Below, in pieces: positions 2,976 through 21,990 of a DNA stretch of 25,553 nucleotides. This stretch comes from Candidatus Altimarinota bacterium (GTDB taxonomy: Bacteria; Patescibacteriota; Gracilibacteria; JBDHUY01). Each line of letters starts with the position of its first letter. The first letter of the stretch is position 1. The stretch covers positions 1 to 25,553 of the forward strand of contig JBDHUY010000021.1 of the NCBI GenBank assembly GCA_039809385.1. Reading direction: 5' to 3'. The notes beneath the pieces are model-generated. The model did not search any database. It was not told the DNA's origin and was given only the letters and a program-made list of their open reading frames with translations. A program made the position numbers and the translations under genes.

Positions 2976-3204
2976 TTTCTATCATTGACAAGAATATGGG
3001 AGTTGTTTTAACAACTAACGGTATTTTATACATTAGATAGATGATCGGTAATTAGGCTTTTTTTCTGCAGGATCAAGTCTTCGGACTTGATCCTCACGAT
3101 TAACAAAACAACCTCCTGGGCAAGGGTCAGAGTGTCTCCCTCGAGACCGACGTGGCCACCAATACGACCGCTACGATCTACCACCACACCGATCATCTCA
3201 CCGG
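2976..3204 (+). repeat. Cassette-junction repeat, copy 2
   Basis: Contains a non-coding copy of the propeller C-terminus (SIIDKNMGVVLTTNGILYIR*), the hairpin at 3069-3094 and QNNLLGKGQSVSLETDVATNT. Confidence 0.9.
3069..3094. other. 11-bp hairpin AGGATCAAGTC-TTCG-GACTTGATCCT (cUUCGg tetraloop)
   Basis: Perfect inverted repeat at the same position relative to the Rhs breakpoint as copy 1. Confidence 0.9.
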
Positions 3205-7153: not shown

Positions 7154-8053
7154 TTACACCCCCTCCTTTTTCCCCACCAACTCCAGAAACGACTCCTCGA
7201 GCGGCGTCCCCACCACAATCTGACGCACACCCACCTGGTGCCGGTGCAATAATTCCGAAATCGTCCAGTTCACCTCCTCCAGACTCGCCTGCTCCGGATC
7301 AAACGACACCGACAACACCTGCGTGTCGGCAGCATAGGTTTTCTCCAGTAGCCACGGATACTCCCCGATTCGTGCCGGATCCAAGGAAGGAGTAATGTGA
7401 AACTCTACCCGCGATCCGGTTTTGGTCAGTTCCTCAAGCGGCCCCTCGAACCGCATCCGTCCTTCGTGAATGATCCCGATCGTTTGCGAAATCTCCGAAA
7501 TCTCGTGCAGATTATGCGAACTGATCACCACTGTTTTGGAAACAGCCAACTCGGTAACCAGCGTACGTATCTGAAACGCGCTCTCGGGATCCAGACCTGC
7601 CGTAGGCTCGTCCAAAAGCAGAATATCCGGATTTCCCAGCAACGCCTGCGCAATCCCCAGACGTTTGTACATACCATGCGACATCTTTTCCGGCGACACG
7701 TGCCCCTTGTCGGCCAACCCCACCTGTTCCAGGACCCTCAGCGCTTCTTTTTTTCGAAGCTGGGGGGCAACCGAACTCAGCGCGGCCAGAAATTCCAACT
7801 GATTCGCGGCTTTGCGACCCCGGAAAAACCGGGCGTCCTGCGGCATGACCGAGAGCGTCCCGGAACGTACAAACGTTCCGGAATTCGCTTTGATAAACCC
7901 GGCCAGAATCCCAAACGTGGTCGTTTTGCCAGCCCCGTTCACCCCCAAAAAACCGTAGACTCCTGTGCGGGGTACATGCATCGAGACCCCCTGCAAGGTA
8001 GTCTTGCGACCGTAGTGTTTTACCAACATGTCTGTCGTCAGGGCGTAGTCCAT
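7154..8053 (-). CDS. ABC transporter ATP-binding protein (exporter type)
   Basis: Walker A GVNGAGKTT, signature MSHGM, Walker B ILLLDEPTAGLDP, H-loop SSH. Confidence 0.95.
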   Translation of the reverse strand: MDYALTTDMLVKHYGRKTTLQGVSMHVPRTGVYGFLGVNGAGKTTTFGILAGFIKANSGTFVRSGTLSVMPQDARFFRGRKAANQLEFLAALSSVAPQLRKKEALRVLEQVGLADKGHVSPEKMSHGMYKRLGIAQALLGNPDILLLDEPTAGLDPESAFQIRTLVTELAVSKTVVISSHNLHEISEISQTIGIIHEGRMRFEGPLEELTKTGSRVEFHITPSLDPARIGEYPWLLEKTYAADTQVLSVSFDPEQASLEEVNWTISELLHRHQVGVRQIVVGTPLEESFLELVGKKEGV

Positions 8054-8072
8054 GGGAAAAGCGAATAAAGAA

Positions 8073-8900
8073 CTAGAGATCCTTGCGGGAGAAATTCCAC
8101 CACCCGATCAGCCAGAACAGAATCGTAAAAAGTACATAGACACCCAGCGTTTCGGCCAGTTCGAGCGAATTGTTATAGAAGAGACCGGTGAGGTATTTCA
8201 CATCGTAGGGCGACAGATAGTCAATCCAGAAAGGCAAAATAAACAGCAGAAACAAAACCGTGGCCCCGACGATCAGCGCGGTAAACGGTTTTTTGAAAAA
8301 AGTCGAGAACATCATGGCAAAAGCGACAAACACCGACAGAAAGACTTGCCCAATGGCCCAAAAGCGGATTCCGTAAGCGAGAGTCACCCCAAAATCTAGC
8401 CCCTTGAGTTGAAAACTGGCCCAGACCAGCGCAAACAACAGAGCTACCAAAGTAATTAGAGCACACTCGACGAGACTCCCCAGAAACTTAGTGAGATAGA
8501 GCTGAAAGCGCGATACGCGAAAGAGCAGGTAACGCAGAGTCCCGTCATAAACCTCCTGCGCAATCTTGTCGTAATTGAGCAGCATTACAAGCAGCGGCGT
8601 ACCGAAAATAGTGACCAGAAACAGGGCCAGATTGATAAACGGTACATTGATGAGGAAATCGATCACCTGATTATTCTGGGATCTCAGCGCGTTTTTGGCA
8701 AAGCCGAAAGCCAGATTCTGCTGGGTCTGCGTAATCCCCTGCTGCTCGAACTGTTCTAAGATGCGGGCCTGGATATGAATAAATCCCAGCGCCAGCAGCA
8801 AAAAAACGCTCAGGTAGAGGATGAGAAATAGCACCGCTTTTTTGCTGCGCCATGAATTGAGGATTTGGTCTTTGAGCAGGATCGGGAAGGTATGTTGCAC
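8073..8900 (-). CDS. ABC-2 type transporter permease
   Basis: About six TMs with the E..DGTLRYLL..VSR..LYL.KF motif. Directly upstream of the ATPase. Confidence 0.9.
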   Translation of the reverse strand: MQHTFPILLKDQILNSWRSKKAVLFLILYLSVFLLLALGFIHIQARILEQFEQQGITQTQQNLAFGFAKNALRSQNNQVIDFLINVPFINLALFLVTIFGTPLLVMLLNYDKIAQEVYDGTLRYLLFRVSRFQLYLTKFLGSLVECALITLVALLFALVWASFQLKGLDFGVTLAYGIRFWAIGQVFLSVFVAFAMMFSTFFKKPFTALIVGATVLFLLFILPFWIDYLSPYDVKYLTGLFYNNSLELAETLGVYVLFTILFWLIGWWNFSRKDL

Positions 8901-13772: not shown

Positions 13773-13812
13773 AATCCCGTAGAGACGCATTGCAATGCAT
13801 CTCTACGGGATT
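13773..13812. repeat. GTAG-type REP-like palindrome
   Basis: AATCCCGTAGAGACGCATTGCAATGCATCTCTACGGGATT, 40 nt with one mismatched pair. Confidence 0.85.
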
Positions 13813-13827
13813 TCTAATACCCCTGCC

Positions 13828-14628
13828 TCAACCCCCGTTCACCGACACCCGCCGCCGGGCCCGCTGAAAGACCAGATAGGTAATACTTCCCAACACCACG
13901 ATCCAAAACAACTGAATCGCTAACAACCGCCACCACTCATCTTGCCAGCTCACATAGACCGTATGCGTGATAAACTGGGAAGCACCGAAAGGGCTGTAAA
14001 TCGCCAACTGTTTTACAAAATCGGGAAAGAGCGCCACCGGCAGATAGGATCCGCCCAGAATCATCACCATCTTGTCCACGATCCAAAAGATAGGGTTACT
14101 GTCTTCGATCCAGAAAGCCGTCAGTCCAATAATAGCATAAATAAACAAGGCCAGAAAAATACCTCCAACAATACTCAAAAGGATCGTTGGGAGAAATAAC
14201 ACGTTGAGCATTGTCGCCGGAAAACCGATCGTAATAAACAGTACCAGGGTTCCCAAGACCAGAATCACCAAAAACGGATACAACCCTGCTCCAACCTGCC
14301 ACCACCAGCGGTACCACAGATACGACACCGGCTTGTTCAGCATCAGTTCGACCGCACCCGACTGGACATCCTGGATGATCTGCTTGGAAAGCTCGCGAAT
14401 ACGTAAGACCGAGAGCCAGAAGTACAGAAACATGCTCCATGCCGCCACATCAAACGTAATACCGGCTACAGTTCCCCCCCGCAGTCCAAACACATAGGAA
14501 TAGAGCAGCAAGACAATACCGCAGCGCGCCATCACCGCCACCGTGTCGGTAACCAGCCGTCCGGGATAAAAAATCCGGTCTTTAAATAGAGTTTTGACTA
14601 ACGTCCACGCCACTCTAAGGTCTTTCAT
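13828..14628 (-). CDS. ABC-2 family (DUF990-like) permease
   Basis: DVQSG.VE.ML.KP.SY, AFWIED and [11 protein letters not shown]...PF motifs; about six TMs. Confidence 0.9.
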
Positions 14629-15601
14629 ACATATCGCGGATTACGGTTTCAAGATCGATACTGTAGACATTCAAGTCTTTTATATCAAAAAGCTCCAGGA
14701 GGGTTCGCAGCGCAATGCGCAGTTCGACGCGGGAGAGATCCACCATGACCGTAATCTTTTGATTTTCCTGCAAACGGTAGCGGATACCGGCGGGAAGATC
14801 CGGGAATTCGGAAAAGCTGGCGGTCGGGATCAGGTCGACATATTTTTCATGTAAAAAAGCGTTGGAGAGTTCGCGGGTAGGCAGATCTTTGACAATAGTC
14901 CCGTGATTGACCACGATCGTACGTCCGGCCAGCGATTCGATATCGCCCACATCGTGGGAGGTCAGAAAAACGGTAGTCCCCTGCTCTTTATTGATCTTGA
15001 GTAACAAATCGCGCAACGATTTTTTGGCCACGACATCCAGCCCGATCGTCGGCTCATCCAGAAACAAGATCTCGGGGTGGTGCATTAAAGACGCCGCAAC
15101 TTCGGCCCGCATCCGCTGTCCCAAAGACAGTTTCCGTACCGGTTGAGACGCAAAACCAGACAGATCGAACAATACGATCAACTCTTCCATCCGGTCGTGA
15201 ATCTGGCGCGCAGAAAGATCGTACATGACGCCGAAAAACTCCAGAGAATCGGTTAAAGGAAGATTGGCGAATAACTGGGAACGCTGGCCGAACACAGTAC
15301 CGATGCGGTATGCCAGTTTTTTACGATCCCGGGTGGGATCAAGGCCCAAGACCCGTATGTGCCCCGACGTGGGAAACAAGATACCGGTCAACATTTTGAT
15401 GGTGGTCGATTTTCCGGCCCCGTTGGGACCGATAAAGGCGATCCTTTCGCCCTGCGTAACCGAAAACGAAATATCGCTCACCGCCGGTACCTCTTTTTTC
15501 AGAGGCATAAAAAGATTACGCCACCAGGATACTCCAGGTGTCTTGGTCGAAAAAGTAAACGTTTTGGTGAGGTTTTTTACCTCGATGGCGACAGGTTGCA
15601 T
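14615..15601 (-). CDS. ABC transporter ATP-binding protein (DrrA/NatA-like exporter)
   Basis: [36 protein letters not shown] and TSH motifs. ATG15601 is chosen because the upstream ORF extension runs through a terminator. Confidence 0.95.
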
Positions 15602-15620
15602 AGGAAGAAAAGTTCGATAG

Positions 15621-15651
15621 AAAAAAAAGGTCCACCGTGGCGGACCTTTTT
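15621..15651 (-). terminator. Intrinsic terminator in the 5' leader of the ABC operon (attenuator)
   Basis: The minus strand reads AAAAA-GGTCCGC-CACG-GTGGACC-T8 and ends 19 nt before ATG15601. Confidence 0.85.
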
Positions 15652-15684
15652 CTTTATATATTCCTGAATAGTTGAAAGAGAATA

Positions 15685-15735
15685 TCAGAAAAGATCCACA
15701 TCCCGACGGGGAGTGACGCGGAAAATGAGAGACAT
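15685..15735 (-). CDS. Putative 16-aa leader peptide [16 protein letters not shown]
   Basis: ATG...TGA mini-ORF overlapping the candidate protector and antiterminator strands. A TATGAT -10-like hexamer lies about 22 nt upstream. Confidence 0.55.
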
Positions 15736-15808
15736 CTGACAGTGACGGTACGAGCAAATCATAGACAAAGGGGTTTTACAAAAATTCACCGCGGGATCAA
15801 AAATAAAC

Positions 15809-15852
15809 TGGAGCAGGGAACCGCCGCTTTACGGGGTCTCCGCCCAACCTGC
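15809..15852 (-). other. 44-nt tRNA-Gly-like mini element ending in U-CCA
   Basis: GCAGGTTGGGCGGAGACCCCGTAAAGCGGCGGTTCCCTGCTCCA. GCAGG pairs with CCTGC, and the last 13 nt match the tRNA-Gly 3' end at 11/13. Confidence 0.45.
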
Positions 15853-16400: not shown

Positions 16401-17012
16401 TTAAAGATCGCTCAGATTGTCCAGAATATCCTTGATGCCTTCGTCGAAATCCTTTTTCTTCTTGGAAGATTTGGCCGGTTTTTCTTCCTCGGGTTGTTCG
16501 ACTACTTCTTCGGCTTCAGGCTCGGGCTGCGATACAGGCCGTGTTTCTTCCTCTGGAACTACTTTGGGAGCTTTTTTGACGACCGGCTTCTTCTCTTCTT
16601 TCACAGGGGCCGCAGGTTTTACCTCTTTCTTGGTCTCAACCACAGGCGCAGCTGCTTTGGCATCTTTTTTCTCGTCTTTTTCTTCCAGCACGGCAAACGG
16701 TTTGACTTCGAAGTTATGCGGGAGACGAATCATCAGAAACCGCAGGAGAGGCGTCATCAGTTGAAATTCGCGACGCATAGGGGTCACATCACCGTCAAAA
16801 GTGAAATTTAACACTACGTAGATCGCTTTATTTTGCCCTTTCATCGGATAGTAGAGGTCGCGCTTTCCCCAGACTTGTTCGTGGAAAATATTGCCGGAAC
16901 GAGTCAACAGTGCTTTGATCGAATCAAGTTCTTTGTGCAACTCTTTTTCGGTCAGTTGCGGCATGAAAGCCAGCATAAGTTCGAATTTGTTGCTTTTGGC
17001 GGAACGGGACAT
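16401..17012 (-). CDS. rpsF: 30S ribosomal protein S6 with long Lys/Glu/Pro-rich C-terminal extension
   Basis: FELM, WGKRDLYYPMK and LLRFLMIR motifs in the first ~98 aa. Lies upstream of rpsR. Confidence 0.93.
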   Translation of the reverse strand: MSRSAKSNKFELMLAFMPQLTEKELHKELDSIKALLTRSGNIFHEQVWGKRDLYYPMKGQNKAIYVVLNFTFDGDVTPMRREFQLMTPLLRFLMIRLPHNFEVKPFAVLEEKDEKKDAKAAAPVVETKKEVKPAAPVKEEKKPVVKKAPKVVPEEETRPVSQPEPEAEEVVEQPEEEKPAKSSKKKKDFDEGIKDILDNLSDL

Positions 17013-17266: not shown

Positions 17267-17402
17267 GTCTTTCTAAGCGAGAGGCAAGAATCTGCCTCCT
17301 TAGCGTCGTCGTGCTACAGAGAATGACAAGCAGAGGCTCGTCACCCCGTTCAGAGTGATGGACAGTCCAGTTATTCCGAGCGAAGCGAAGAATCTGCTTC
17401 CT
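17267..17402. repeat. Cluster of GTCA(C/T)TC(T/C)GAGCGAAGCGAAGA(G/A)TC-type palindromic element arms
   Basis: Left arms at 17267-17293 and 17370-17395, both followed by GC(C/T)TCCT. A degenerate right arm lies at about 17335-17359. Confidence 0.65.
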
Positions 17403-20602: not shown

Positions 20603-20811
20603 AAGCAATATTTATTTGTTCCCTCCCGCAAAAAGTTGACCTGCAAGTTGCGATTATACTCCTTCGCCGCAGGAATACGAAACTTTTCATAGCGATTGGA
20701 ACTTCCGATTGCCGCGCTTGAGAGCAATTTCAGATGGTATGCTTCGGAGCATTTTCGTAAAATGGATTTAGATGAGTATAAACGGTATTCTTCATTGCGT
20801 GGCTTGAACAG

Positions 20812-20985
20812 GCTCCGTGCATGTACGGATCCTGTACCCCCGCCGGGGCGGGGCAGGCAATCCAGCATGACGGGACTGGGGATTTTTCCCAAGCTCCCCT
20901 TTAATGTCACTCTGAGCGAAGCGAAGAGTCCCGGGACGGTCGGTACGATGGTGAACGAGTGTGGTGTTCGCTATACTGGCTGGGA
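20812..20985 (+). repeat. 174-bp direct repeat, copy 1
   Basis: Ungapped alignment to 21788-21961 with 8 mismatches by manual count (~95% identity). Confidence 0.95.
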
Positions 20986-21130
20986 GCGGATTTCAGGACC
21001 GACACGAGTGTCGAGGCGAGCAAGGCCGGTGATTCTTTGAGAAGTTGGGTACCAGATTGGTAGGATTTTCTATTTGTAATTTTATACAGATTTGATAACT
21101 TGATTTTAGTTATTCATTCAATGGGATGAT

Positions 21131-21621: not shown

Positions 21622-21787
21622 TATTGATTCGTTGTAGGGATTTTGTATTGCTTCTGACCTAAAAGAAGGTCTTCCCAAAGAATTCGGGGACAGGTACAGC
21701 GATGAAAATGAGCGCGGTATCCAGCGCATGGAACGGGAGTAGAGTGTCTTGGTTTGATACGCACTCTTTACTGAGCGCCATAAAAAA

Positions 21788-21961
21788 GCTCCGCGCGTTT
21801 ACGGATCCTGTACCCCCGCCGGGGCGGGGCAGGCAATCCAGCATGACGGGACTGGGGATTTTTCCTAAGCTCCCCTTTAATGTCACTCTGAGCGAGGCGA
21901 AGAGTCCCGGGACGGTTGGTACGATGGTGAACGAGTGTGGTGTTCGCTGTACTGGATGGGA
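21788..21961 (+). repeat. 174-bp direct repeat, copy 2
   Basis: Matches copy 1 at an offset of 976 bp. Confidence 0.95.
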
Positions 21962-21990
21962 ATAGAATGCAGCCGTTTGATATGTACTCG

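Follow-up and report, generated by a model that had tools for sequence, protein, structure and literature searches.

We analysed a 25,553-nt stretch of the genome of an ultra-small, uncultured Candidatus Altimarinota bacterium (hereafter, the window) and identified, on its minus strand and in front of a three-gene ABC transporter operon, a compact leader that we model as a lineage-specific, ribosome-dependent transcription attenuator of the VmlR/BmrB type, an interpretation that we regard as evenly balanced. The leader combines a small upstream open reading frame (uORF) with an anti-antiterminator, an antiterminator and an intrinsic terminator, and in our folding model the position of a ribosome on the uORF selects between the last two. 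If real, this would be a leader-peptide attenuator in Patescibacteria, with reduced bacteria steering transcription by ribosome position, and would offer a first clue to the stimulus behind an uncharacterised exporter that is widespread in that group. The attenuation mechanism itself is well known; the lineage is unexpected for it, and with one unconserved example in one genome the case carries limited weight. Among the matches listed in our literature search, conducted outside the subscription journals, none described a leader-peptide attenuator in Patescibacteria.

The exporter operon and its genomic setting

The operon encodes an ATPase and two permeases, and its 5' side is occupied by rpsF, rpsR (identified with Pfam) and a tRNA-Gly gene:

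14615..15601, minus strand: ABC ATPase, 328 aa, PF00005; best NCBIfam model drrA, below its cut-off
13828..14628, minus strand: ABC-2 permease 1, 266 aa, PF06182
12928..13722, minus strand: ABC-2 permease 2, 264 aa, PF06182
15876..15950, minus strand: tRNA-Gly(TCC), from ARAGORN and Rfam, downstream of rpsF-rpsR

All three operon genes are intact with lengths as in their orthologues, and the gene order, an ATPase and two PF06182 (ABC2_membrane_6) permeases, is identical in orthologous loci. The combination of an ATPase and two ABC2_membrane_6 permeases in one operon, by which EVE/DUF990 exporters are recognised, is thus present; PF06182 is presumably the former DUF990. The EVE (ethyl viologen exporter, DUF990) family, TC 3.A.1.141, is described as having an ATPase and two membrane subunits, as in the window operon (PMC5417439). 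In its predicted proteins the window transporter resembles this family, a likeness drawn from architecture and PF06182 rather than from a direct comparison with EvrABC. The NCBIfam model drrA matched the ATPase with 211.6 bits against a cut-off of 312.45, and no model among the matches listed for the operon proteins reached its cut-off; a PDB sequence search with the permease alignment returned 0 matches. "Drug exporter" is a label that we infer for the transporter.

The ATPase start at ATG 15601 agrees with the starts of the orthologues in the locus comparison. Its frame is open for 52 codons further 5' (15757-15601, minus strand), across the entire leader, to a TTG directly after the TATGAT motif discussed below; an N-terminal extension of these 52 codons from TTG 15757 was ruled out, as the orthologues start at the equivalent of ATG 15601. 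Permease 1 ends in TGA exactly where the C-terminus of the family is conserved, which indicates that TGA is a stop in this genome and rules out its reading as glycine, under which the uORF would run through the terminator. For a neighbouring coupling protein, most named relatives belong to Peregrinibacteria and Gracilibacteria (56-58% identity), which most likely places the host in a deep lineage of Patescibacteria; homologues of this protein at 67-79% identity form a small clade.

Several other features of the window were recorded. A near-perfect palindrome (13773-13812), which resembles a REP-type insertion, separates the two permease genes, whereas these are just a few bases apart in most orthologues. 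In the product of rpsF (16401-17012, minus strand), the C-terminus is lengthened by a charged stretch of low complexity, ~100 residues long. A 208-nt direct repeat (20789-20996 and 21765-21972, 89% identical) flanks a hicB-hicA toxin-antitoxin pair, and a 25-nt piece of it recurs at 17370. Other repeats (1344-1560 and 2976-3204) lie where two genes resembling Rhs-core cassettes begin; a small gene follows each of them, and Pfam gave no match. A second ABC-2 type operon (7154-8900, minus strand) encodes a PF12679 permease and an ATPase; our pattern scan flagged no terminator upstream of it.

Elements of the leader

The initial annotation had described the leader as a TATGAT box, a mini-ORF, four RNA strands forming three mutually exclusive pairings, and a terminator, and every letter that it cited was found at its place. 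The elements, delimited here from sequence and folds, are as follows:

15758..15763, minus strand: TATGAT, candidate -10 box; predicted transcription start near 15751; ATG 15762 is an in-frame alternative uORF start
15745..15750, minus strand: 5' strand able, in the folds, to base-pair with 15638-15633 (loop and 3' arm of the terminator), reinforcing the antiterminator
15685..15735, minus strand: uORF of 16 codons covering strands 1 and 2, read from the sequence; translation predicted
15683..15741, minus strand: anti-antiterminator domain; strand 1 is CCGCGTC (15721-15715); longer register -17.7 kcal/mol
15702-15696, minus strand: strand 2 of the protector pairing, GATGTGG, from the sequence
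15699-15689, minus strand: antiterminator 5' strand GTGGATCTTTT, from the sequence
15650-15640, minus strand: AAAAGGTCCGC, strand of the 2:3 pairing, from the sequence
15640..15699, minus strand: antiterminator hairpin 2:3, with an 11+2 bp outer helix and two 4-bp helices; -16.6 kcal/mol
15621..15654, minus strand: intrinsic terminator with A-tract, 7-bp stem and U8; stem -11.4 kcal/mol
15798..15846, minus strand: imperfect hairpin with U-rich tail, candidate terminator of rpsF-rpsR-tRNA; fold of -17.9 kcal/mol

The terminator stem GGTCCGC/GTGGACC (15646-15629) is followed by T8 (15628-15621) and by 19 nt to the ATPase ATG 15601; the terminated leader RNA would be ~130 nt long. The uORF ends directly after strand 2, 38 nt before this stem. 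Both alternative pairings are present, although neither is quite as first described: 2:3 is longer, extending over a 60-nt hairpin, and 1:2 exists in several registers, the strongest being the hairpin 15741-15683. In the register originally given, 1:2 shares just 4 nt with the 2:3 helix; one protector register takes in the A of the uORF start codon. The strand at 15745-15750 is dispensable, the terminator probability being 0.04 with it and strand 1 masked together. Further upstream, a sub-stem of the 15846-15798 hairpin was flagged as terminator-like by the pattern scan.

Searches with Rfam 15, over the whole window and in E-value mode, brought the tRNA alone to its gathering threshold. The best match unrelated to tRNA was DapZ (E 0.005, 28.4 bits against a gathering threshold of 56), and Thr_leader gave 25.1 against 55. 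Where the uORF ends, the sequence resembles a pause consensus (G-11 G-10 ... U-1 G+1), a match to which we attach no weight.

Promoter and start of the uORF

The attenuator had been called complete; its elements are indeed present, but the promoter is weak and the uORF has two possible starts. TATGAT fits the -10 consensus at 5/6 positions, no consensus -35/-10 pair was called there, and its score on a matrix of orthologue promoters is 0.3 (5th percentile 1.35), a matrix that may not fit this host. Within TATGAT, ATG 15762 is in frame with the uORF and yields a 25-codon version. No Shine-Dalgarno-like motif is visible for the uORF. By eye, the gene starts of the window are mostly devoid of such a motif, and several follow a pyrimidine run, which precedes ATG 15762 and is absent before ATG 15735.

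No -10-like box (TAnnnT) occurs in the window between the terminator and the ATPase ATG. The best extended -10 match in the region lies at 15684, downstream of strand 2. As operon promoter, this candidate (TGATATTCT, -10 at 15684) was rejected because its transcript would lack strand 2 and terminate; such matches are also common by chance. A counter-reading offered with the initial annotation, in which the hairpin only terminates the rpsF-rpsR-tRNA transcript and the operon has its own promoter, is weakened by the lack of a -10-like box after the terminator, and the separate hairpin at 15846-15798 also weakens the idea that the 15646 hairpin serves the tRNA transcript only.

Folding as a function of ribosome position

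At equilibrium, the full-length RNA always folds into the terminator (probability 0.98 or more), hence any switch must be kinetic. This fold is itself uninformative because the A-tract pairs with the U-tract. At the decision point the U-tract sits in the RNA-DNA hybrid, and it was therefore masked in folding. Ribosomes were represented by a footprint of -13 to +15 around the P site, with +12 and +18 also tried.

Once the U-tract was masked, folding reproduced the three-state logic that had been proposed. The terminator probability was 0.48 for naked RNA. With the P site on codon 1 it was 0.95 and on codon 2 it was 0.85; codons 3-8 gave, in order, 0.00, 0.00, 0.53, 0.31, 0.06 and 0.36, and every position from codon 9 up to the stop gave 1.00. 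Masking strand 1 alone gave 0.001 and masking strand 2 alone 0.999. The earlier suggestion that a ribosome masking strand 1 allows read-through is thus borne out in the folds, whereas the main control lies in the occlusion of strand 2 past codon 8. The more specific suggestion of read-through upon stalling near I-F-R depends on the footprint, since at F5 and R6 the terminator probability ranges from 0.002 to 0.53 with the footprint assumed. Footprints of +12 and +18 move the permissive range by about one codon, with strong changes in single values, and either uORF start leaves this range at identical nucleotides.

The profile was kept at 10-37 C, naked RNA staying at 0.44-0.48 over the temperatures tested, and for six assumed transcription starts from 15790 to 15745; with RNA begun at the end of the tRNA the switch was much weaker (minimum terminator probability 0.33). 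On untranslated RNA, the protector lifts the terminator probability only from 0.001 to 0.48, and in stepwise folds it survives until strand 3 emerges. To refold from the antiterminated state into the terminator, the RNA has to cross a saddle ~13 kcal/mol higher, which makes a kinetic switch feasible. The leader presents a terminator in front of the ATPase gene with no -10-like box after it, and a mutually exclusive antiterminator able to form first; the selection between them by a ribosome on the uORF holds in silico only.

Chance expectation

The 2:3 duplex (-12.8 kcal/mol) was reached by 26/5000 dinucleotide shuffles. As a natural control we used 123 terminators from 80 related loci, two of which matched this duplex (1/123 when expressed relative to a perfect duplex). 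Shuffling produced a uORF of at least 6 codons in 231/1000 cases, and a uORF together with the switch in 6/1000 under strict and 17/1000 under lenient rules; among the natural terminators, 45/123 had an ATG uORF and 0/123 the switch geometry. Under a relaxed test admitting weaker hairpins and three start codons, two of 11 orthologue upstream regions (L048 and L066) passed, with hairpins of -8.2 and -7.0 and a -10-like box downstream in both, so that the switch test is not specific for weak stems. The locus was chosen by eye from a genome scan, and all these chance rates are consequently post hoc.

Orthologous operons

Permease relatives numbered 563 at E 1e-20 or better, the best being 65% identical. 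An alignment of 82 permeases led to the best 80 of 97 loci in the genome collection, of which 8 were dropped (short flanks or broken ATPase match), leaving 72 for analysis. Conservation of the uORF and stems, named as a check in the initial annotation, was not observed: the leader is common to none of the 72 distant orthologues. The best blastn match of the leader in the 80 loci (744 kb) had an E-value no better than 0.16, and none was found in plasmids; 10 weak 39-nt matches within streptococcal phage genes were rejected as chance. Judging from these sequences, the leader is not a feature of the PF06182 operon family in Patescibacteria, the relatives compared all being distant from the window lineage. 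In a quick tree of 70 ATPases (3/73 skipped as short), the median end branch is 0.26 and that of the window measures 0.95, which makes these orthologues too distant for covariation.

The extended -10 motif TGnTAnnnT stands 5-10 nt before the ATPase ATG in 37/72 orthologues, as compared with 1-3 in four control windows, and its spacing to the ATG peaks at 6 and 9 nt. TAnnnT at 4-10 nt was found in 15 more; the remaining 20/72 have neither box, several of these being coupled to an upstream gene or preceded by a more distant -10-like box. In the 37 orthologues the position of the box leaves no room for a leader and suggests leaderless or nearly leaderless mRNAs in Patescibacteria, on which passages of a promoter survey say nothing (PMC12641261). 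A hairpin followed by U residues lies upstream in 11 orthologues, and 10 of them have TAnnnT between hairpin and ATG, where the window has none.

Orthologues occur in unrelated contexts, several directly behind a tRNA and terminator (L001, L012, L031, L067). A shared context with the nearest orthologue, L001, was considered and dismissed: it too lies behind tRNA-Gly(TCC), but has other upstream genes and no similar leader. The operon often begins within ~200 nt of various tRNA genes (L001, L012, L022, L027, L031, L047, L056, L067), as if inserting at tRNA sites, and it is also present in records labelled Gammaproteobacteria, Bdellovibrionota and Verrucomicrobiota.

Proposed mechanism and rival explanations

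In the model that we put forward, this lineage would have acquired the attenuator ahead of an exporter operon that appears leaderless in about half of its relatives. Transcription would start near 15751 and, assuming translation and coupling, a ribosome following the polymerase would by default translate the 16-codon uORF. Having passed codon 8, it would cover strand 2, so that no antiterminator could form and the 3:4 hairpin would end transcription 19 nt before the ATPase. A ribosome held on codons 3-8 would instead leave the 5' protector melted and strand 2 free; the 60-nt antiterminator would then form before strand 4 exists, and the exporter would be transcribed. Arrest at the start codon would not induce, and untranslated RNA would be leaky, with about half terminated. 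The signal would most likely be translation-inhibiting compounds, to which we assign about two thirds of this reading, the other option being a general slowing of translation. Antibiotic sensing is thus a role that we infer for the leader.

It is quite possible, though short of probable, that the hairpin is a plain terminator of the rpsF-rpsR-tRNA transcript or of a small RNA, behind which the exporter operon landed. Expression would then come from leak-through or an unrecognised promoter, the uORF would be incidental, and the copy of the terminator arm in strand 2 would be a chance match or a short local duplication. The unrelated contexts of the orthologues, several of them behind a tRNA and terminator, fit such a history, as do the ease with which uORFs arise in shuffles and before natural terminators, the lack of leader conservation, the terminator's win at equilibrium and the location of the best extended -10 match (15684) downstream of strand 2. 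This explanation has to contend with an antiterminator strength within the top 1-2% of natural terminators and 0.5% of shuffles, with the lack of a -10 box after the terminator, with another terminator candidate nearer the tRNA, and with three intact genes of orthologue length.

Two further explanations dispense with the ribosome or with control of the operon by the leader. That the leader is a bistable RNA responding to a small ligand, to the speed of the polymerase or to an RNA-binding protein, with no involvement of the uORF, seems unlikely to us. The naked RNA is close to 50:50 at every temperature tested, uORF translation is a prediction, and leaders of ABC genes with unexplained mechanism have been described (PMC2965389); against this stand the absence of any Rfam family at threshold and a uORF laid out as a ribosome-driven switch requires, extending over strands 1 and 2 and ending just beyond the latter. 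We consider it very improbable that the 130-nt terminated RNA acts in trans as a small RNA while the operon is regulated otherwise: DapZ is the best Rfam match unrelated to tRNA, yet it falls well short of its gathering threshold and owes its score mostly to a generic terminator, and the transcription of the operon would be left unexplained.

Comparison with known systems

ABC transporter genes are reported to carry the most predicted attenuators of any family, with a patchy distribution (PMC2965389), and uORFs responding to several drug classes are known from toiL (PMC12121999). At the peptide level, the window uORF resembles the streptococcal leader MsrDL (MYLIFM), which tolerates changes at position 2, requires L3 and I4, and stalls the ribosome at codon 6 (bioRxiv 10.1101/2021.11.29.470318). 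The window uORF likewise starts M-x-L-I-F, with M1, L3, I4 and F5 in the MsrDL register, which holds only for the start at 15735 and not for that at 15762; such starts are found at 13/23712 ATG codons in the loci, and the MsrDL stall codon 6 falls in the permissive range of the window leader. MsrDL has six codons; its stop codon matters, regulation is weaker when a codon is added, and the terminator is covered directly by the stalled ribosome (bioRxiv 10.1101/2021.11.29.470318), whereas the window leader would use an antiterminator. In the window uORF codon 6 is Arg, ~70 nt from the terminator stem, and the frame continues to 16 codons; it is therefore not an MsrDL member, for want of the stop after codon 6 that matters in MsrDL. 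We see little likelihood that a Patescibacterium independently gained an MsrDL-like M-x-L-I-F nascent-peptide sensor, wired it to a full antiterminator switch on an operon that is leaderless in many relatives, and thereby senses tunnel-binding antibiotics with arrest at codons 3-8 and ignores drugs with arrest at the start codon; were this true, an uncultured episymbiont lineage would couple transcription to translation and possess an inducible defence against drugs.

In architecture, the window leader resembles two systems of Bacillus subtilis. The bmrB-bmrCD leader places a leader peptide and a terminator/antiterminator/anti-antiterminator arrangement before an ABC exporter, and efficient translation of bmrB prevents the antiterminator (PMC4191407). 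The bmrB frame has 53 codons and contains the terminator, whereas the window uORF has 16 (or 25) codons and ends ahead of the stem; the window transporter, an ATPase with two PF06182 permeases, is also unlike bmrCD. The vmlR gene encodes an ABC-F factor, and its leader, conserved in Bacilli, holds a three-codon uORF with a Shine-Dalgarno sequence inside the anti-antiterminator; an intrinsic terminator and an antiterminator complete the leader, the latter being freed when the ribosome stalls (PMC9226507). Unlike vmlR, the window leader showed no conservation, its uORF spans strand 2 as well, and start-codon arrest is predicted to be non-inducing. The three-structure layout is common to vmlR, bmrB and the window leader.
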